Positions 11,011 to 59,995 of a DNA stretch of 64,000 bases are shown piece after piece. The notes under the pieces were generated by a model. It ran no database searches and was not told where the DNA came from. It worked only from the letters and a program-made list of their open reading frames with translations. The DNA is from a virus. The translations under genes were made by a program, and so were the position numbers. Positions within the stretch are counted from its first letter, which is position 1; every line of letters begins with the position of its first letter. Location: positions 7,334 through 71,333 of the IMG/VR virus record IMGVR_UViG_3300036771_000036; one strand, 5' to 3'.

Positions 11011-11130
11011 ATGAATACACGAGAAGAAGAATTAGCAGCAATTAAATTAAAGTTGGATCAACTATATGACCGCATTGTAAGAGAAAGCGAAGTAGATGCG
11101 TACTATGACAAAAGGATGATCCATAAATGA
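11011..11130 (+). CDS. 39-aa peptide not in the ORF track
   Basis: GGAGG RBS; MNTREEELAAIKLKLDQLYDRIVRESEVDAYYDKRMIHK; ATGA overlap with the next gene. Confidence 0.6.
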   Translation: MNTREEELAAIKLKLDQLYDRIVRESEVDAYYDKRMIHK

Positions 11131-11393
11131 TTAAGCCAATCCGACCAACTGTAGTTACTCTTTCTAACCCAGAATTTGAACAGTTTAATGATTATGCAGT
11201 GAGCACCAATAAGACACAAAGTATTGGAATGGATAATATGAGACATCTCATGGCTGAGTTTAGAAAGCATACTAATACTGGGTTGAAAAAAGCAGCATTG
11301 CGAGCTGGTGGATCTCTAAAGACTAAAAACTATATTGATTCACAGGAGATTTGTCGTGAAGTGAGGTATGGATATGGTTGGGATGAGGATTAG
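11127..11393 (+). CDS. small protein, possible antitoxin-fragment fusion
   Basis: N-terminal KPIRPT module shared with 41275..41664; C-terminal GSLK..IDSQEICREVR..W. Confidence 0.6.
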   Translation: MIKPIRPTVVTLSNPEFEQFNDYAVSTNKTQSIGMDNMRHLMAEFRKHTNTGLKKAALRAGGSLKTKNYIDSQEICREVRYGYGWDED

Positions 11394-11586
11394 ACCAACA
11401 CTGACTGGTAAAGATGCAGACAGATTCATAACAAGAATGAGAAATAACGAACTGAATATGAAACAGCATGCAGCTAAACAAATTGAGAGGTATAAACTAT
11501 TTAACGATAATCTGGGAGGGAAGAACAAATTTTTAACTATGGACAGCAAGTCTGGGGATCAGCAGACATCAATAAACAAGTTGTAA
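11368..11586 (+). CDS. small protein, possible antitoxin fragment
   Basis: PTLTGKDADRFI matches PTLEGEDAKRLL in 41989..42321. Confidence 0.6.
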   Translation: MDMVGMRIRPTLTGKDADRFITRMRNNELNMKQHAAKQIERYKLFNDNLGGKNKFLTMDSKSGDQQTSINKL

Positions 11587-39000: not shown

Positions 39001-39622
39001 AAAACTGTCCACACTCACCAATGCAGCACTTACTAATTGGTCAAACTACATTCATATTGAAGGTAATGCTATTAGATGGCTTACTGGTAAAGTCAAAGCA
39101 GGAAGTGGTACGCACAAGGCGTTGTCTGATGGTAGATTGTTGTATTGGGTTACATCAGAACAGGCAGGATTAATGACGGTAGAGGAAACTCCATGGCCTG
39201 TGATGATCTATGATATGGAGGAGAAAGAGAAAGCAAAGTTCTACTTCGAAGGTAGTGGTGAGTCAGCTTATCCTGTTATTAATATGGGTGAGGGTGACAG
39301 ACAGGGGTATGGTAGAGGACAGATTACTAAACCTAATGGAAGCTTTGAGTTTTTGTACAGCAATAGCAACTTAGGAAGAGAAAGAAGTCTAAAGCTTCGA
39401 GACAGTGGCGTATTCATTAAAAGTGAGTCAGGAGAAATAAGTTTAGAATCAAAAGATTTTATTGTTGTAACCGATGGCGGTAATGTCCAGATTGGTTTGA
39501 CTAACGGGACTAAATTTGAATTAACATCAACCGGAGATGTCAATGTTAAAGCATCCAGAAACATGAATCTCGAAGCCACAGGCATAATGAATTTGAAAGC
39601 AAGTCGTATTAATTTGAACTAA
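36098..39622 (+). CDS. tail hub/spike protein (Tal, YomG-like) with C-terminal beta-helix-like end
   Basis: TRLLASGKDGLGIQKVNPTGQNFIENY; C-terminus VNVKASRNMNLEATGIMNLKASRINLN. Confidence 0.8.
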   Translation: MLGEIDYTKKPIKPQYFLAKPDGEPVSKLSEAFNDSMIIKLNDVSELSLSLPYKIDVHHRSVKNKNVDIIKEKYLIQVVVGNSSEWFIVKTIEDSIDDSDIMNVKCMSLTYELSKKIIKSFSAESVGADRVINDLLTMGDTIWNVDYIDPDFQLTYRAFDFPSSTVLEAIYSVAETYNAIVKFDTNNRTLRMTKPEETGINMGLTVSYGKLMKNMSRNKDADQMVTRLLASGKDGLGIQKVNPTGQNFIENYGYFIYPFERDANKNVISSSHWMSDSLCHALLDYDILVESKNGLFKQYLEELEGYETQLNQLKIDLNKLQQDEKVVQEVTLAQQFSDKMYFEKYQHSGSTSRIFKLNKGYNYAAMIKVDSSSGLTVALNGSVKPTISGRWVMLGKLNNLETTTISVSGSSTGVFMQVATISVEEYQMTSNDNVIVERYSLDNKEAQINLKQIEISNKLNQITGVQNRISSLHTLLDSDNNFTSQQLIELNKYLFVQEFSDDVYIDEKDLYEATLEKFKELQVPLISAEIDIVNFLEMIEEQRNWKKLNLGDFINVKYQPLDINLTARISEINYDYGSSNIKLTLSNTKNVDDETARIEKFLKNSKNTSVVVDTSKTKWGQAVIASNDITTLFENFWDRATNTINMANNEATQIDNRGITVYDKDDHLRFIRITHGIVGMTDNGGISYKMAITPTHLVADNVWGKLFVGERLTLGDIDGLLEITGPKFMIYDRNKRLVQQMGLLSDNPDVFGTVVNRFANANSTNLTKTNEIGMNNSRGFYIDKFRNGVRSDVLTLSTDGNFRLRVGDDNEIITISEKGFGIGHQTWEKSPFRVNYFGECWLESLWAVNAYITNSKFENGELNGNKLTLRDGGNLMKLWPREGFWAGSEAEGADDPLLAPMWIKMDGTAIFKKLVVTDKNNTLLIDSEKKYIDFGGFDAIGIGALDAELLAANMLTVQDGIISNLTAGKLSTLTNAALTNWSNYIHIEGNAIRWLTGKVKAGSGTHKALSDGRLLYWVTSEQAGLMTVEETPWPVMIYDMEEKEKAKFYFEGSGESAYPVINMGEGDRQGYGRGQITKPNGSFEFLYSNSNLGRERSLKLRDSGVFIKSESGEISLESKDFIVVTDGGNVQIGLTNGTKFELTSTGDVNVKASRNMNLEATGIMNLKASRINLN

Positions 39623-39698
39623 AGTTTTCCATCTTCATAGCCGATAATAATGGTATAGTATACCATGTGATAGCTATATCATTATGCGGAGGTGCAAT

Positions 39699-40499
39699 AT
39701 GAAAAAGATGTTAAAAAAATTACCAACATTCATGCTAGGGGCAGTTGTCGGGATTACACTTACAGCAGGCACAGCAGTAGGAGCAGCTACATACTTAAAA
39801 GCAACTCAATCAAACGTAAAGATTGTTGTAGATGGCACACAAGTGAAATTGTCCGATTCGCCACTTAACGTGAATGGACGGTTATACTTGCCTGTACGAG
39901 ACACAGCTAATGCTCTTGGTTATTCTGTTGAGTCAGTAACTAGCTCTAAAGTTTCATTAAAAGAAGGCACGTCAGCAAGCAACACGACTACAAATAATGG
40001 AACGACTAGCTCTAACAATGGTTCAACGGGCGGTCAGTCTGGAACGGGTGCGACCAATCCGAGTAATTCCAATAGTGGATCATCAAGTACAACAGCAAGT
40101 AAGAAGGTGAAAAATTTGCGGGAAACGTACAGTACAGATGGGAAATTGGACGCAGAGAAGATTCGTACAGCGCTAAACAATGGTACTCTAGACGTAAACG
40201 CTCAAGATAGCGATACGATGGATACATTGCTACACTTTGCTGTGCTTGATGAAGACTTTGAAGCTTACAAAGCCATTAAGAGAAATGCATTAAGCCCAAA
40301 CATTCAAAACAAAGACGGACAGACAGCTCTTATGTTGGCTGTAATTAATGATCGAGATTTTTATTTCGGAGAAATTAAAGACATGAAGCCCGATGTGACG
40401 ATTAAAGACAAAGCGGGAAAACAGGCAATAGATTATGCTGACCCTAAGTCAACATATTATTCCTCATTAAGAGCGTATGCATTGTTCAACAACAAATAA
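39699..40499 (+). CDS. secreted protein: signal peptide, copper-amine-oxidase-N-like stalk, S/T/N linker, ankyrin repeats
   Basis: MKK...LTAGTAVGA; NGRLYLPVRDTANALG; DTLLHFAV, DGQTALMLAV, GKQAIDYA. Confidence 0.8.
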   Translation: MKKMLKKLPTFMLGAVVGITLTAGTAVGAATYLKATQSNVKIVVDGTQVKLSDSPLNVNGRLYLPVRDTANALGYSVESVTSSKVSLKEGTSASNTTTNNGTTSSNNGSTGGQSGTGATNPSNSNSGSSSTTASKKVKNLRETYSTDGKLDAEKIRTALNNGTLDVNAQDSDTMDTLLHFAVLDEDFEAYKAIKRNALSPNIQNKDGQTALMLAVINDRDFYFGEIKDMKPDVTIKDKAGKQAIDYADPKSTYYSSLRAYALFNNK

Positions 40500-40511
40500 T
40501 AAATCACACAC

Positions 40512-40538
40512 GAGCACTCAGCAATGGGTGCTTTTTCT
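40512..40538 (+). terminator. intrinsic terminator
   Basis: GAGCACTCA-GCAA-TGGGTGCT followed by a T-run. Confidence 0.7.
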
Positions 40539-40575
40539 ATGCAAATCTTTACGATTTCAACCCTCTTGAATTATA

Positions 40576-40770
40576 TTGTGTATAAGGGAGGTGGAGAGAA
40601 CGAAGCGTTGTCAATGTGGATCATTTGCTAACCTACACTATATGTCTAAAAAGAAACGTGTAAATCAAACTATCACAATGGTTCATAATGTTCCAGTCTA
40701 TGTATGCGATGATTGCGGTTTTAGTTTTATGACAGGTTCAGATAGTAAGCAGTTTGCAAGTAGTACATAG
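40576..40770 (+). CDS. stand-alone YgiT/MqsA-type zinc finger; start uncertain
   Basis: CQCG...VHNVPVYVCDDCGFSF; no HTH follows. Confidence 0.65.
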   Translation: MCIREVERTKRCQCGSFANLHYMSKKKRVNQTITMVHNVPVYVCDDCGFSFMTGSDSKQFASST

Positions 40771-40969
40771 AATAGAGTTACACAGTGTCACGCTTTCCTG
40801 ATGGAGTAAACCCATTGAAGCCGTATGCAATCACTAGCCATATAAATCAGATGTGTTCTGATCGGTCTTATGGTGTTCATCATTCTAGTATCATGTGGTA
40901 TAATATTCCTTAACAACAGAATGGCTAATATGGGCGGTCGGCTAGTCTCCTGCAAAGGAGGTGATGCCT

Positions 40970-41053
40970 GTGGAAGTGAAAGATACACTTATGTTGATGA
41001 TTCAATTCGCAACGTTGGTGATTTTGATTCTTTCCTTCAACAAAAAGAAATAG
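40970..41053 (+). CDS. 27-aa type I toxin (holin-like toxin/BsrE-like) not in the ORF track
   Basis: AAAGGAGGTGA RBS; MEVKDTLMLMIQFATLVILILSFNKKK; TG-N-TATAAT at 40899-40904. Confidence 0.85.
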   Translation: MEVKDTLMLMIQFATLVILILSFNKKK

Positions 41054-41172
41054 ACCGCCCTCGGCAAAGGTGACGGTCATATTTCAATTACCTATGCACA
41101 GCCACCGCCCTTAGAAGCGGCTGTTGTAAAGAGTAGGGATGTTCGCGCATCCTTGCTCTTTTTTTATTGTAT
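41042..41172 (-). ncRNA. candidate convergent antitoxin RNA
   Basis: Minus-strand promoter-like TGGAAT-17-TACACT; hairpin GACCG...CGGTC with a T-tract overlapping the toxin stop; toxin terminator at 41130-41165. Confidence 0.5.
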
Positions 41173-41274
41173 CCATAGTGTAGCACATAAATTCCCAAAA
41201 TTCCACATTCACAATGCTGGTTATTGAACAGTTATAAGCTCATTCTTAAATGCCCAATAAGGAGATTAGGTAAA

Positions 41275-41664
41275 ATGGTAAAAGTGAAACCGATTCGTCC
41301 AACTAAAGTTATAGTCAATAGTGAAGAAGAATACAGAGCATTCGTTGATTTTGCTCATGGCGTGAATCAACCATATGACCAGATTATTGAGGAAATTAAT
41401 GAGAGATTAAGAAATCATGTTCGTTCACCTAAAAAGGGTAGTATTGAACATAAATTGATGCAGCAACGCTTGCAGGGATATCCCAATTTCAAGAATACCA
41501 TTGCTAAAGAATTGATTGATACCCACAATATTACTCCTGAATTAGCTACCAAATATGCTTTCAGTGACGAGATTAATGATCAAATCATGGATGATATTGC
41601 ATGGGCACAGTACATGGGGCCCGAGTATTGGGCAGATTCGGCAATGGATGAATTTGTGAGGTGA
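41275..41664 (+). CDS. small two-module protein, possible antitoxin mimic
   Basis: KPIRPT module shared with 11127..11393; second module ending YMGPEYWAD; AAGGAG RBS. Confidence 0.6.
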   Translation: MVKVKPIRPTKVIVNSEEEYRAFVDFAHGVNQPYDQIIEEINERLRNHVRSPKKGSIEHKLMQQRLQGYPNFKNTIAKELIDTHNITPELATKYAFSDEINDQIMDDIAWAQYMGPEYWADSAMDEFVR

Positions 41665-41966
41665 GGGAGGTTAAAATTCCTAATACACCATTAACACGTT
41701 CCAAATTAGCCAATCTACACTCACACACTCCAATGTCTGAACGTTTAGCAAAACGAAAGTCGATTGACTTATGCGACAATCATATCGTTGTTGATGTAGG
41801 CGATGGATTTGTAAAGATTGTTCCGATCAATACATCCAAGACCCACACATACATAGACAGTGAGTATGCTGAACAATTTCTAAAAGAAGTTCATAGCAAA
41901 CCAACTGAAGCAGTTAAGCAGCGCAACAAACAGGCACAAGCATTACTACATAGGTTACAACGTTAA
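41661..41966 (+). CDS. small two-module protein, possible antitoxin mimic
   Basis: C-terminal IDSEYAEQFLKEVHSKPTEAVKQRN resembles EGEDAKRLLDSLQNKPTERSRKN of the next gene. Confidence 0.6.
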   Translation: MREVKIPNTPLTRSKLANLHSHTPMSERLAKRKSIDLCDNHIVVDVGDGFVKIVPINTSKTHTYIDSEYAEQFLKEVHSKPTEAVKQRNKQAQALLHRLQR

Positions 41967-41988
41967 TACTGAATTCTAGGGGGATTGG

Positions 41989-42321
41989 ATGAAGGAATTT
42001 AAGGGATTGATTGAACAATTTGAAGAAAACAAGCAGCAATACTATACTCAAGAAAATCAACGAGAACGCAACCTAATCTCTACAACGCAATTGGCTTCTA
42101 CTCCAACACTTGAAGGTGAAGATGCTAAACGATTACTGGATTCTCTTCAGAACAAACCAACTGAACGATCACGCAAGAACGCTGAGAAACTGAAGGAGCA
42201 TTTTGCATCAATTGAACATGGCTATCTGAAGACCGCTAAAAGGCTTCCAAGAGTGAATGGAATTATAACATTGGATAGAAATAATGTGGATCATGTGGCG
42301 TGGGGTGAAGGGTATGAATAA
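41989..42321 (+). CDS. small multi-module protein, possible antitoxin mimic
   Basis: ASTPTLEGEDAKRLLDSL..KPT and LPRVNGIITLDRNNVDHVAW segments. Confidence 0.6.
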   Translation: MKEFKGLIEQFEENKQQYYTQENQRERNLISTTQLASTPTLEGEDAKRLLDSLQNKPTERSRKNAEKLKEHFASIEHGYLKTAKRLPRVNGIITLDRNNVDHVAWGEGYE

Positions 42322-42517
42322 TCAGGATAATCCAATGGCAAAAGTCAGAGAAATTGTTCAAAAAGCTATGAAGGAAAAGGGAATCACAATTGATGATGTA
42401 AGAGCAGACTTGGCAGCGTATAGACGTGGTGAAGAGTATACTTATGGTGAAGAATACATCGAAGAAGATGATTTTGTTCCTTATATGAACACAAAAGCGT
42501 GGGACGATTTTGAGTAA
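42314..42517 (+). CDS. small acidic protein
   Basis: MNNQDNPMAKVREIVQKAMKEKGITIDDVRADL; overlaps the previous stop. Confidence 0.6.
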   Translation: MNNQDNPMAKVREIVQKAMKEKGITIDDVRADLAAYRRGEEYTYGEEYIEEDDFVPYMNTKAWDDFE

Positions 42518-42556
42518 ACTCTTACATGGAAAAGTAGACGAAGGGAGTAGAGGCGA

Positions 42557-42715
42557 TTGATATTTAAAGATGCTGAGATCACACTAGATACACCTGAGAA
42601 AGTGGAACTGTTCAATAAATTGTTACACGAAAAGGGAAGAGTAAATGAAGATTTGATTCAAAAAATCAAAAATACACCTGCTATCCCAAGAAGAAAGAAG
42701 AGGGAGGTGACCTAA
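42557..42715 (+). CDS. 52-aa peptide not in the ORF track
   Basis: GGGAG..GAGG RBS, TTG start; MIFKDAEITLDTPEKVELFNKLL... Confidence 0.5.
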   Translation: MIFKDAEITLDTPEKVELFNKLLHEKGRVNEDLIQKIKNTPAIPRRKKREVT

Positions 42716-43318
42716 ATTACAGTACGCGACTCCCTCTACTTCTCCTTTGCTGGTGTTAAATCCGTTGATTACGGAATCCTTAATGTCAATCTAAGCAGTG
42801 GAATGCAAGAAGATATATTCTTTCCTTCACGAGAAATCATCGAAGAAAAAGTTAAAGGTAATGATAAGCCATATTTTATGCGGACTGAGACTGAGCCATT
42901 AAAGTTTTCAGTCTCTTTTGCGTTTGAGGAAACTTGGAACACGGAAAAAATACGAGAAGTTGCTCGATGGCTTACACAGCACGACTATTATCAAGAGCTT
43001 TACTTTGTTAATGAAGATGGATTAGGATCTGAACGAATATTCTATGCAATGTTTGTTGAAGACTCAACTCTTATTCACAATTGTCTCAAAGAAGGATACA
43101 TCAATCTAACGGTGCGTTGTGACTCGCCTTATACATATTCCCCTATTATGACTTCTCGTCTATATACTTGGGATTATGCTCCTGTTGAATTTGCTTATTC
43201 CGATTTCTCGCAAGGTATTAAACAATCCACAGTCGTTAACACACAAGGGCAACTTACACTAAATCCATATAAGCCAAAATGGTTAGATTATAAAGGCAAG
43301 AAGTGGTCTGAAATCTAA
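42716..43318 (+). CDS. distal tail protein (YomH-like), N-terminal part; ATT start
   Basis: GGGAGGTGA RBS then ATT-TVRDSLYFSFAGVKSVDYG in frame with track ORF 42803; GYINLTVRCDSPYTYS. Confidence 0.75.
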   Translation: MTVRDSLYFSFAGVKSVDYGILNVNLSSGMQEDIFFPSREIIEEKVKGNDKPYFMRTETEPLKFSVSFAFEETWNTEKIREVARWLTQHDYYQELYFVNEDGLGSERIFYAMFVEDSTLIHNCLKEGYINLTVRCDSPYTYSPIMTSRLYTWDYAPVEFAYSDFSQGIKQSTVVNTQGQLTLNPYKPKWLDYKGKKWSEI

Positions 43319-43335
43319 TAAGAAAGGAGATTAAA

Positions 43336-43971
43336 ATGTCCACTGAAACAACTAAGTTAAAACTTAAGATTCCCTCTTTTACCGATGAAATTGAAAGTAC
43401 TATACGAGAGCTTGGAACAAACTTCATAATGCTCGACGATATTTCAGATGATTATGTTACAGAGATACCAACAAGCGGGGATTTCCTGATCAAAAAACGA
43501 TTATATAATGACATTCCTGTTGTCGGTAAGTATGTAGGTTGGGTTAACACTCGCACTGGCAAAGCGGCTCCTAAGTGGCAACGCCTTAAATCTTACAAGA
43601 ATGGCGACTACATTGTACCAGATGTTGATAATGGTCATGTTTATATCTGTATTCAAACAGGATATTCCGGTTATACGGAACCAATCTTTCAGGTTTCTTC
43701 AGGCATTGAATTTAACGACACTCGCTTAGCTAGTGGGTGGGCTGCTACAACTCAATATAAACTCAATGACATCATACTGCCGACAATTGATAATGGTCGC
43801 TTTTACTTGTGTATTCAAGCAGGAGAGTCAGGAAACATAGAACCAACATGGCAACAAGTAGATGGGGCTACAACATATGATGGGAATGCGTCATGGGCTG
43901 GCTATCGTATTACAAAATGGAAAGAAGCTGGAGCCGCAGCATTCTTCAGACCATTTGGAAAGATCGAATAG
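43336..43971 (+). CDS. fibre-like protein with two carbohydrate-binding-like repeats
   Basis: Two W..Y..D.I.P..DNG..Y.CIQ.G.SG..EP repeats. Confidence 0.65.
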   Translation: MSTETTKLKLKIPSFTDEIESTIRELGTNFIMLDDISDDYVTEIPTSGDFLIKKRLYNDIPVVGKYVGWVNTRTGKAAPKWQRLKSYKNGDYIVPDVDNGHVYICIQTGYSGYTEPIFQVSSGIEFNDTRLASGWAATTQYKLNDIILPTIDNGRFYLCIQAGESGNIEPTWQQVDGATTYDGNASWAGYRITKWKEAGAAAFFRPFGKIE

Positions 43972-43979
43972 GTGCTACT

Positions 43980-44618
43980 ATGACTACATGGAATTCACTT
44001 ATCAATTTAAAGGGTCACTATACTTCAGAACCCCTCCCTGTTACCGCTGAGGCAGACAATGTAATTACTAAAATATCTTGGATAAGTAGTTCTCCTACTG
44101 GATCAAATGTCACCATACAAACTAGACTCAGTAAAGATGGCGTCAATTGGACTGAGTGGCAGAACTGTATTAATGGTGCTCACATTCCTGATATCACAGA
44201 AGAAACTTCCACTTACAATACTAAGATTATGTTCCGAGTTCTCATTAATTCCTCAAGCTATGACATTAAACCTTCCTTTACTAAAATCACACTCTATTAT
44301 GAACCAGTCCTTGTCTTTGATAATAAAGGGGATATGAACTGTTCGCCTGAAATATGGATTACCAAGCAAGGAAATGGAGATTTCAGCATAGTAAATACTT
44401 CTCACAACAATGATGAGTTCAAGTTCACTAACCTGATCCACGATGAGACTGTGTACGTTGACAATGAAAAACAAGACATTGAAACGTCTTTAGCAGTTAC
44501 TTATCGCTACAAAGACTTTAATGACAATTATCTCTCTTTTCCTATAGGTAAAAATATACTTAGGGTAACTGGAGACGCCGAAATCAAATTTAGATATCAA
44601 TTCACATTATTACAATAG
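43980..44618 (+). CDS. distal tail protein, C-terminal part
   Basis: NKGDMNCSPEIWITKQGNGD...FNDNYLSFPIGKNILRVTG Dit C-terminal pattern. Confidence 0.7.
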   Translation: MTTWNSLINLKGHYTSEPLPVTAEADNVITKISWISSSPTGSNVTIQTRLSKDGVNWTEWQNCINGAHIPDITEETSTYNTKIMFRVLINSSSYDIKPSFTKITLYYEPVLVFDNKGDMNCSPEIWITKQGNGDFSIVNTSHNNDEFKFTNLIHDETVYVDNEKQDIETSLAVTYRYKDFNDNYLSFPIGKNILRVTGDAEIKFRYQFTLLQ

Positions 44619-44626
44619 GAGGATAA

Positions 44627-45100
44627 ATGGCAGGAGTAGCTTATAAAGGATCAACAATTCAAGAATCAAACAAAAGTGGACATGTGTCTTATGTTGAACG
44701 TTATCAAAGTGGAACAGAATGTTCATCGTGGGATCAATTCGGCAATTGCACAGGTTATAGTCCTGTCTATAGCACAACCACTCACACAACAGGGGCAAAA
44801 ATTACAGGGACGCTTAATTCAACATCCACTGTCTATGTAAATGGACAACCGATTGCGTCTGTATCATCCCCAACACAAGAACAGTGGACTGCTGATCCTT
44901 CTCCATCGCCAAAACTAGGTGGTTCAATTATTTCAATCAGTCCCGGTACATCAGGTAGCGGCTCAGGCAGTGTTTCATCTGGAAGTTCCTCTGTTTTTGT
45001 TGGTGGCAAAGCAGTATCTAGCATCGGTAAAAATGTTAATACACATCTGGGTACGACAACTACAATTACCTCTGGCAGTAGCAATGTATTCGTTAACTAA
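44627..45100 (+). CDS. PAAR-like (gp5.4-like) spike tip protein
   Basis: Three repeats: STVYVNGQPIASV, GSSSVFVGGKAVSSIG, GSSNVFVN. Confidence 0.7.
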   Translation: MAGVAYKGSTIQESNKSGHVSYVERYQSGTECSSWDQFGNCTGYSPVYSTTTHTTGAKITGTLNSTSTVYVNGQPIASVSSPTQEQWTADPSPSPKLGGSIISISPGTSGSGSGSVSSGSSSVFVGGKAVSSIGKNVNTHLGTTTTITSGSSNVFVN

Positions 45101-59521: not shown

Positions 59522-59617
59522 GATTGCGCGCGCTGGAAATTGATGTATAATGAATATTAAGAGTAAAGATAATAAAATAACATTGTATAGTAGAGAGATA
59601 TGAAGGAGATGTTAATT

Positions 59618-59995
59618 ATGAGTATGGTAATGGAACGTAGAGGGGTTGAAGCCAAAACAGTAAAAAGATTGGAAGTATGGGCTATTGATTTGGGGAAAAA
59701 CGATGGTAGTGTTCAAAGTGGAGTAAGACCTTGTGTGATTTTAGGTAATGATAGAGGTAACAAATTTAGTCCTGTGGTAATTGTATCTCCACTAACAACC
59801 AAGATCAAAAAGCCGATGCCTACCCACGTGTTCGTAAATGCTGAAGATTGTAATGTATTTGAAAACAGTGTTGTCCTATGTGAGCACATTATTACTATTG
59901 ATAAAAAACATTTGCAGTACAAATTGTTTGAGTTGCCTTTCAGTTATCTAAAGAAAATAAATAATGCAGCAAAAATAAGTCTAGATTTAATGTGA
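59618..59995 (+). CDS. mazF: PemK/MazF-family endoribonuclease, no adjacent antitoxin
   Basis: GSVQSGVRPCVILGNDRGNKFSPVVIVSPLTT..PTHV; AAGGAG RBS before ATG 59618. Confidence 0.85.
   Translation: MSMVMERRGVEAKTVKRLEVWAIDLGKNDGSVQSGVRPCVILGNDRGNKFSPVVIVSPLTTKIKKPMPTHVFVNAEDCNVFENSVVLCEHIITIDKKHLQYKLFELPFSYLKKINNAAKISLDLM

Follow-up and report, generated by a model that had tools for sequence, protein, structure and literature searches.

We analysed a window of 64,000 bases (bases 7334-71333) of the 71,333-base IMG/VR record IMGVR_UViG_3300036771_000036, whose completeness is estimated at 51%, focusing on six small open reading frames (ORFs) within its tail operon. The carrier is predicted to be an SPbeta-like Paenibacillus phage, with a tail module of the SPbeta-like (YomG_N) kind. 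An initial annotation of the window, made from the letters alone, had described these ORFs as strings of toxin-neutralising fragments, and all six were found on the + strand where it had placed them. Toxin partners of their modules occur only in related prophages, so that the array looks like an antidote kit, and the region is probably a polyvalent orphan-antitoxin array that would provide counter-defence against the suicide systems of rival phages.

The array and its modules

The tail module runs from a 2267-amino-acid (aa) tape-measure ORF through a 1174-aa YomG-like protein (YomG_N and Prophage_tail matches, E 6e-29 and 3e-20) and a 271-aa ORF with Cu_amine_oxidN1 and ankyrin matches to the array region, which is followed by the N-terminal domain of Dit. 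The flanks had been taken for hub/spike and distal tail genes. Tail genes they are, but the upstream neighbours are the YomG-like protein and, directly before the array, the 271-aa ORF, and the downstream neighbour is the N-domain of a split Dit. Homology between the cassette and two loci of relatives, L038 and L040 (L, locus; G, genome), starts at the hairpin that forms the left boundary in Table 1. Terminator-like sites number 4, against 1.3 +/- 1.1 in shuffled sequences, with two upstream of the array and none between the array and Dit; promoter-like sites (6 found, 8.8 +/- 2.9 in shuffles) are uninformative. BLAST of positions 39600-43400 against 50,697 phage records, in near and distant modes, gave no match. 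Among the sequencing runs listed, one DNA run matched, from a soil metagenome, and no RNA run.

We named the modules A, B, C and D (GNAT-linked), E (PemK-linked) and F (kinase-linked), with D2 and G at a second site. The motifs quoted in the initial annotation are present: TPTLEGEDAKRLLDSLQNKPTE in the 110-aa ORF, IDSEYAEQFLKEVHSKPTE in the 101-aa ORF, KPIRPT...EEEYRAFVDFA in the 146-aa ORF and C.C...VHNVPVYVCDDCG in the 64-aa ORF. The proposed reuse of modules also exceeds chance, as the profiles of two KPTE-bearing families align with an hhalign probability of 95.6% (E 1.3e-8). The description of the ORFs as mostly overlapping was mistaken, since only two junctions overlap (41661-41664 and 42284/42314-42321). 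Ribosome-binding sequences precede the array ORFs, and the start of o101 overlaps the stop of o146 in GTGA. In Pfam, four ORFs had no family at E <= 1 and two had weak hits to other families (E >= 0.048); PHROG likewise gave no credible family for any of them, structural families included. The region was also considered as an intron or a single broken gene and rejected as such: the frames are separate and have their own ribosome-binding sites, and the Rfam intron match lies elsewhere, in L019. That match is a group I intron at 10063-10369 of L019 (RF00028, 59.2 bits, gathering 50), downstream of the tail genes of this related viral contig.

Module D1, with its KPIRPT motif, takes up about residues 1-57 of o146 and is followed by the C-terminal domain X. 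Full-length relatives of o146 are P0002-P0004; a protein atlas search with o146 gave no usable match, and a viral-contig search with o146 alone or o101 alone returned pattern matches and no relatives. An AlphaFold2 model of o146 from a five-row alignment was too poor to use (mean pLDDT 52, pTM 0.32). The acidic o77 has one relative (73%) in a set of 5.8 billion proteins and two marginal matches, with internal stops, in 401 Paenibacillaceae genomes; in L079 a counterpart of its N-terminal part (41% over 41 aa, E 2.6e-7) is joined to a B module.

The 64-aa ORF at the head of the array had been read as a YgiT-type zinc finger, the toxin-binding half of MqsA. The signature itself is reached, at 21.5 bits against a cut-off of 20.2 for NCBIfam TIGR03831 (YgiT_finger, E 2e-4), and with it the ORF shares the Cys-pair arrangement of the MqsA N-terminal zinc-binding domain, C-x-C then C-x-x-C. 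The link to MqsA was not sustained: the family model TIGR03830 scores 15.9 bits against a cut-off of 61.8, the ORF ends 18 residues past the second Cys pair and has no helix-turn-helix (HTH) domain, and no MqsR-like gene lies at the window locus or beside the homologues in L065-L067, whose neighbours belong to no Pfam family and so provide no toxin link. Homologues of the ORF occur in 17 of 93 host-genus genomes at E <= 0.01, below 1e-3 only in G070, G062, G091, G089 and G038. Both arrays of G070 hold a copy that is 84% identical.

Behind the zinc-finger ORF lies a 455-base stretch (40771-41223), unmentioned in the initial annotation, that holds a bsrG-like element. Its candidate toxin is a lysine-tailed hydrophobic ORF of 27-29 aa (54% hydrophobic over the open frame), with a Shine-Dalgarno sequence next to the start; this frame is kept in all five bsrG-like copies (window, L038, L034, L018 and L019), whereas a longer alternative frame is not. 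Terminator-like sites on the - strand lie at 41152-41137 and 41067-41055. Four of 12 loci scanned carry such an element (L034, L018, L019 and L038), each with orphan small ORFs behind it; the scan detected none in L017, L033 or the toxin-antitoxin (TA)-bearing L002-L005, L009 and L021. The element differs hardly at all between the window and G070, although the flanking ORFs share only 75-84% DNA identity. By its Rfam match, peptide ORF, Shine-Dalgarno sequence, terminator, convergent 3' antisense candidate and SPbeta-like carrier it resembles bsrG/SR4 of the Bacillus subtilis prophage SPbeta, as described in PMC6562991. It differs in its Paenibacillus host, in an antisense candidate that is RatA-like only at a sub-threshold level (E 0.3), and in its coupling to a zinc-finger gene and an orphan array.

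A MazF/PemK gene lies at 59600-59995 of the window, directly after the lysis genes (PF02452 PemK_toxin, E 1.9e-23), and the 268 bases upstream of it hold no antitoxin-sized ORF. MazF-like genes likewise devoid of an antitoxin ORF of their own follow small-ORF/toxin pairs in L037, L059 and L086.

Table 1. Positions of the features discussed (window coordinates)
Feature	Position	Strand	Remarks
88-aa ORF, second orphan site	11127..11393	+	D2-type module (KPIRPT) and extension; no GNAT nearby
72-aa ORF, second orphan site	11368..11586	+	G-type module (RPTLTGKDADRF) and extension; overlaps the 88-aa ORF
Terminator-like hairpin with T run, left cassette boundary	40512..40533	+	After the 271-aa ankyrin/Cu_amine_oxidN1 gene
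YgiT-type zinc-finger ORF, 64 aa	40576..40770	+	TIGR03831; GTG at 40591 is a candidate start
bsrG-like type I toxin mRNA	40913..41156	+	Rfam RF01412, 61.5 bits (gathering 55), E 4e-13, full-length match 1-259
Small hydrophobic peptide ORF, candidate membrane toxin	40964..41053	+	29 aa from ATG, ends KKK
Candidate antisense antitoxin RNA	41081..41174	-	Overlaps the 3' end of the bsrG-like RNA; RatA RF01776, 30.4 bits (gathering 49), E 0.3, sub-threshold
Terminator-like hairpin (15 pairs) with T run	41128..41161	+	Ends the bsrG-like RNA
o146	41275..41664	+	146 aa as listed from 41224; likely ATG at 41275 (129 aa); module D1 and domain X
o101	41661..41966	+	101 aa; module F (residues 4-61) fused to module C (residues 65-101)
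o110	41989..42321	+	110 aa; N-terminal 30 aa, B (residues 33-76), E (residues 62-110)
o77	42314..42517	+	77 aa from 42284; likely ATG at 42314 (67 aa); acidic
o52	42557..42715	+	52 aa; module A alone
Dit N-terminal domain, right boundary	42716..43318	+	ATT start; PF20195, E 6.5e-9; phrog_33 Dit, E 2.3e-13

Module homologues beside effector genes

Relatives have a hypervariable hotspot in the interval from the ankyrin gene to Dit. Directly before Dit, sibling prophages carry a 58-63-aa ORF (rarely up to about 100 aa) followed by a toxin-like gene, and in our alignments the window ORFs are mosaics of these small partner ORFs. Five of the six ORFs consist of, or start with, modules related to small effector-adjacent proteins of these prophages; the matches of o146, o101, o110 and o52 are set out below, and the partners comprise four TacT/KacT-like GNAT types, a PemK-like toxin and a PD-T4-6-like kinase. 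Module A of o52 matches the 60-aa ORF of L002 (62% over 45 aa, E 1e-18), whose partner is a 183-aa GNAT (Pfam Acetyltransf_1, E 8.2e-9), and the ORF of L056 (58%), also directly upstream of a GNAT gene. Module B of o110 is 66% identical to the 58-aa ORF of L004 (E 2e-15), which is paired with a 199-aa GNAT, and also matches ORFs upstream of GNAT genes in L021 and L055. The C module of o101 finds the 58-aa ORFs of L005 and L007 (E about 6e-8), partnered by 193-aa GNATs; with L058 its matches range from E 6e-8 to 3e-7, all of them upstream of a GNAT gene. For D1 of o146, small ORFs directly upstream of GNAT genes are matched in L053/L035 (55%, E 1.5e-14), L052/L036 (E 2.8e-12) and L054/L037 (E 2e-8), in the genomes G006, G084 and G034.

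The remaining two modules point to other effectors. Module E of o110 aligns with the C-terminus of the 104-aa ORF of L003/L008 (57%, E 2e-14; 71% over the last 38 aa) and with an ORF upstream of a PemK-like gene in L086 (56%, E 3e-15). In L003/L008/L085 and in L086 the E homologue runs into the start of a PemK_toxin gene (E 4.3e-5 and 1.2e-6), and a second, independent pair of this kind occurs in G040; the E-type small protein has no MazE or PemI match in Pfam. Module F of o101 matches the 63-70-aa ORFs of L009 (60%, E 4e-19), L018 and L022, directly downstream of a Ser/Thr kinase gene that matches PD-T4-6 in PADLOC (E 9e-39). This kinase is in each case followed by the F-type ORF (L009 3079-4833, L018 25-1010, L022 137-1413), and a coupled 161-aa ORF of no known family comes before it in L009. 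The kinase and its small F-type partner may form a kinase-based defence system.

In all, 20 small-ORF/GNAT pairs are listed in relatives, with the homologue directly upstream of the GNAT gene for A (L002, L056), B (L004, L021, L055, L081, L082, L083), C (L005, L007, L058), D (L009, L035, L036, L037, L057, L061) and G (L059, L063, L021), and the pairing of module and partner is type-specific. This position is occupied by the homologues in relatives, not by the window copies. Approached from the other side, a nine-sequence GNAT profile matched strongly at 14 places in 11 of the 93 genomes; at 12 of them the upstream small ORF has a homologue in the window, while L062 is a toxin fragment and L060 has no identifiable upstream ORF. 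Of the toxin neighbours anticipated in the initial annotation, GNAT genes adjoin the module homologues, but neither MqsR/RelE nor PIN genes were found there; PemK-like genes are further neighbours.

The GNATs of relatives are closest to known TA toxins and are accordingly predicted toxins themselves. For the L004 GNAT, the best sequence matches in the PDB are TA toxins, from 7ak7 (E 4.7e-7) and KacT 5zgn (1.5e-6) through 5xun, 7f37, 7ak8, 5fvj (3.3e-5) and 6gtq/6ajm (about 5e-4) to E 6e-4, and the non-TA GNATs named in this ranking have E >= 0.057. PADLOC models cover neither the GNATs nor the PemK-like protein, and only the kinase matched clearly; for three window ORFs the sole PADLOC hits were two at chance level, both on o110 (E 0.005 and 0.007).

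The small partners are less familiar. The cognate proteins of 58-63 aa have a basic N-terminus that leads directly into the conserved module, without a ribbon-helix-helix, and neither they nor the window ORFs match a DNA-binding Pfam family. Membership of the TacA/DUF1778 family, as suggested in the initial annotation, was not upheld: no Pfam hit places the window ORFs there, the 60-aa ORF of L002 has no family at E <= 0.1, and a six-sequence B-type profile gave only two chance-level hits (E >= 1) in the PDB. By hhalign, families B, C and G are related (95.6%, 95.9% and 75%), A is weakly linked (55-66%) and D is not linked to B, C or G (probability < 2%), so that a single family can be claimed for B, C and G only. 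The pairs of relatives are like TacA-TacT, KacA-KacT and AtaR-AtaT in having a GNAT toxin with the small protein encoded immediately upstream, and in that the window module is predicted to sit over the GNAT cleft region. They are unlike them in their short small proteins without ribbon-helix-helix, DUF1778 hit or match to a solved antitoxin, and the window modules differ further in being fused to each other and having no toxin. The D1-type GNATs of L035, L036 and L037 (244-262 aa) have a C-terminal extension of about 80 aa that looks by eye like an XRE-type HTH; such a toxin-HTH fusion would put autoregulation on the toxin, not the antitoxin.

Modelling of module-toxin complexes had been suggested as a check, and one pair, window module B with the L004 GNAT, narrowly passed its controls. 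The ipSAE was 0.69 (0.66-0.74 in three runs) and the best control 0.48. Of 80 solved complexes, 58 attained our pass mark, 0.20 above the best control, as did 2 of 110 mismatched pairs; these rates hold only roughly here, with custom alignments in use. The runs share at least 63% of contacts, the partner pLDDT is at least 73, and the predicted interface takes in almost all of the module and, on the GNAT, the strands and helices that surround the cleft.

Orphan status, selection and competing explanations

Within the 51%-complete record, the predicted antitoxin modules are without a cognate toxin. A tblastn search of the whole 71-kb record with 15 effector proteins found no GNAT, PemK-E or kinase (all E >= 0.12), and the nine-sequence GNAT profile had no match in the record (G000) either. 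In G070 the profile gave generic matches only (E about 1e-3, against 4e-64 and 1e-60 for positive controls). A cassette much like that of the window occurs in two prophage copies in G070, flanked by the tape-measure gene and a Dit that is not split; it opens with the zinc finger and the intergenic element also seen in the window, followed by D on its own, an F+C fusion, a B+A fusion and Dit. The combinations of fused modules vary: the window has F+C and B+E, G070 has B+A, P0004 has D+X+C, and L079 joins an o77-like part to B. The expectation that modules of a toxin-neutralising type would be concatenated without DNA-binding domains and without their toxins is therefore borne out at the level of comparative genomics.

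A second orphan site came to light on searching the window with all cognate small ORFs. The pair (Table 1) lies upstream of an exonuclease gene; its 88-aa ORF, which has no Pfam family, matches the antitoxin-position ORFs of L009 (46%, E 6e-12) and L057 (45%, E 5e-10), and its 72-aa ORF that of L059 (56%, E 7e-13) as well as L063, L021 and L018. The G type pairs with a GNAT in L059, L063 and L021. A third G070 locus (L033, 74-2200), in which a TAA stop breaks the o146 homologue, also holds a G-type orphan module and adjoins an HD_4-domain protein (E 3e-6); it may be a further anti-defence neighbourhood.

The array genes are, by the substitution pattern between the window and G070, under purifying selection. 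The ratio of nonsynonymous to synonymous rates (dN/dS, Nei-Gojobori) is 0.05 for the zinc finger (55 codons), 0.11 for D, 0.13 for F+C (97 codons), 0.13 for B and 0.08 for A, and 0.06 for a Dit control against L002; the alignments are short (44-97 codons) and dS is 0.66-1.9, in part near saturation. The array of L034 (G016) is a decayed copy, with stops and frameshifts in its o146-, F+C- and B-like parts.

We favour, at a probability of roughly 55%, the reading that the region is a mobile hotspot cassette composed of a zinc finger, a bsrG-like module and an array of neutralisation modules without their toxins. Array modules would bind and block the matching effectors of sibling prophages in trans, so that the phage could grow in lysogens that use those pairs as abortive-infection or addiction systems, or live alongside them. 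A fused ORF would be a bivalent neutraliser, and the bsrG-like module may have a stabilising effect on the cassette. A bolder form of this proposal, to which we give slightly less than even odds, is that the array constitutes a heritable "antidote library", mobile and maintained by selection, in which modules are shuffled and fused into multivalent neutralisers that match sibling cassettes type for type, and in which the bsrG-type addiction module holds the array in place.

Several points weigh against the favoured reading. The locus is not toxin-free, as it contains a bsrG-like type I toxin, and the window itself has genes for two predicted toxins, the bsrG-like peptide and MazF/PemK. Given the incompleteness of the record, an effector could also lie in the missing half. 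The window modules are 46-66% identical to cognate antitoxins, and type II antitoxins are described in PMC11825919 as highly specific, with little cross-neutralisation even of closely related toxins. That the GNAT pairs act in phage defence is something we infer, PADLOC having no model for them. The one complex fold passed by 0.21 where 0.20 was required, and part of its score may be memory because solved GNAT toxin-antitoxin complexes exist. No toxin link emerged for the zinc finger, o77 or domain X in neighbour and family searches. Module F also occurs without the kinase in loci with intact TA pairs (L021, L081 and L082) and may thus have another role.

Some of these points would fit an explanation in which the modules serve the phage's own toxins, either MazF/PemK or effectors in the unsequenced half, or regulate the bsrG-like module in the lysogen, the rest being redundant. 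The window's MazF-like gene and its counterparts in L037, L059 and L086 have no antitoxin-sized ORF upstream, about half of the genome is outside the record, and the arrays of the window, L038/L040, L034, L018 and L019 all follow a bsrG-like element. However, at least eight different modules would face at most two known own toxins, the pairing in relatives is type-specific and with GNAT rather than MazF, and bsrG-type toxins are under antisense RNA control (PMC6562991). Furthermore, G070 has two arrays and no matching GNAT in its genome, and the orphan modules of L017 and L033 come without a bsrG hit. We therefore regard this explanation as unlikely. The small proteins could also be activators, specificity subunits or trigger-sensing subunits instead of inhibitors, with the orphans serving as sensor decoys or regulators of host proteins. 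They have no sequence link to a characterised antitoxin in Pfam or the PDB, F stands downstream of its kinase, the PADLOC models of PD-T4-6 are all of the kinase, and the HTH-like extension on some D-type GNATs suggests that regulation may not need the small protein. Nevertheless, the gene order of small ORF, overlapping or abutting stop and start, and toxin is that of type II TA systems, the toxins are closest to TacT, KacT and AtaT, and the predicted interface spans nearly the whole module and the surroundings of the GNAT cleft; such non-inhibitory roles seem rather improbable to us.

The modules might also be non-functional left-overs of successive TA cassettes that lost their toxin genes. 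Turnover of the hotspot is fast, with different cargo in each of L002, L003, L004, L005 and L009, and both the decayed L034 array and the stop-interrupted o146 homologue in L033 are of the kind expected from such decay. Yet no frame is broken in the window or in either G070 copy, dN/dS is low (0.05-0.13), the same fused ORFs are kept across phages whose tail-gene contexts differ, the ORFs have ribosome-binding sequences ahead of them, and a second orphan pair stands at another site, which makes a graveyard of genes very improbable. That the array proteins are tail-assembly or virion components would accord with their position between tail genes, where Dit must be transcribed through or after the array. 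We give this next to no credence: most relatives with the same tail genes lack the set (L002-L005, L020, L022-L032), no PHROG structural families were found, and homologues lie outside tail operons (L033, L079, L084 and window 11127-11586).

The hotspot, known counterparts and significance

Dit itself shows several peculiarities. Its start in the window is apparently ATT, 6 nt downstream of GGAGGTG (42700-42730), with an in-frame stop right before it (TAA in the window, TAG in L009, TGA in L038); the aligned position is ATG in L032 and ATA in L040, L002 having been compared as well, and ATT appears to be a conserved non-canonical start codon. Relatives, found in Paenibacillus genomes including P. 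barcinonensis and P. illinoisensis, align to residues 1-200 of the N-domain ORF. In the window clade Dit is split into this N-domain ORF (42716-43318) and a C-domain ORF (43893-44618), with a 211-aa CBM_5_12-like ORF (43336-43971, phrog_20658) inserted between the halves. L006 (8001-8777) has a single 258-aa Dit directly after the tape-measure gene, and the placing of a YomG-like tail protein before Dit is an unusual gene order. After the C-domain comes a 157-aa ORF (44627-45100) that matches the PAAR-motif phrog_281 (E 6.6e-7); similar ORFs of 138-152 aa precede Dit in L023, L032 and L086.

The cargo of the hotspot in relatives extends beyond the pairs described above. L005 (5745-6855) and L032 (4263-5387) hold what look by eye like pairs of a Panacea (DUF4065)-type antitoxin and a toxin. 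Large multi-zinc-ribbon proteins occur in L002 (DUF4379/DUF2726), L005, L009, L018, L019 and L022. Judged from its gene content, the tail-operon hotspot is a general TA and defence island.

Phage genes that counter toxins they do not encode have precedents. T4 Dmd is an antitoxin mimic without a toxin that counters TA defence, and in this it is like the array. Phage orphan antitoxins are established for DarTG (PMC11825919 and the review PMC13728456). The former includes AdfN, a NADAR DarG1-like protein of T4-like phages and, like the array, a phage antitoxin-like gene without its toxin. AdfN and Dmd are single genes directed against one system, and AdfN is an enzyme, whereas the array comprises at least eight predicted binding-type modules. 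These would be aimed at different effector types, and they are concatenated and fused and reside in a temperate phage, in a hotspot where siblings carry what look like the complete pairs. Outside phages, the acquired interbacterial defence (AID) clusters of Bacteroidales, arrays of orphan type VI secretion system (T6SS) immunity genes, provide another parallel (bioRxiv 10.1101/471110): toxin-less immunity genes on a mobile element, matched to the toxins of competitors. They differ in that the toxins are delivered between cells by the T6SS, the elements are integrative, and the genes are separate, not fused. A literature search of limited scope brought up no paper on type II antitoxin modules arrayed or fused in phages, nor any on these Paenibacillus pairs.

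Orphan type II antitoxins are hard to find, according to PMC11825919, and a comparison of hotspot cargo across relatives can reveal them. The present set also defines very short, domain-minimal partners of TacT-like GNAT toxins that searches of Pfam, PADLOC and the PDB miss. At least six pair types in sibling prophages, together with their toxin-less fused counterparts in the same host genus, constitute a natural matched set, so that a specificity matrix and an infection test are directly feasible. The role of prophage type II TA systems as anti-phage weapons, and the escape of phages from them, has been argued mostly from single cases. If our reading is correct, the array would represent a polyvalent, modular form of anti-TA counter-defence and would provide direct evidence of a prophage-versus-prophage arms race fought through type II TA systems.

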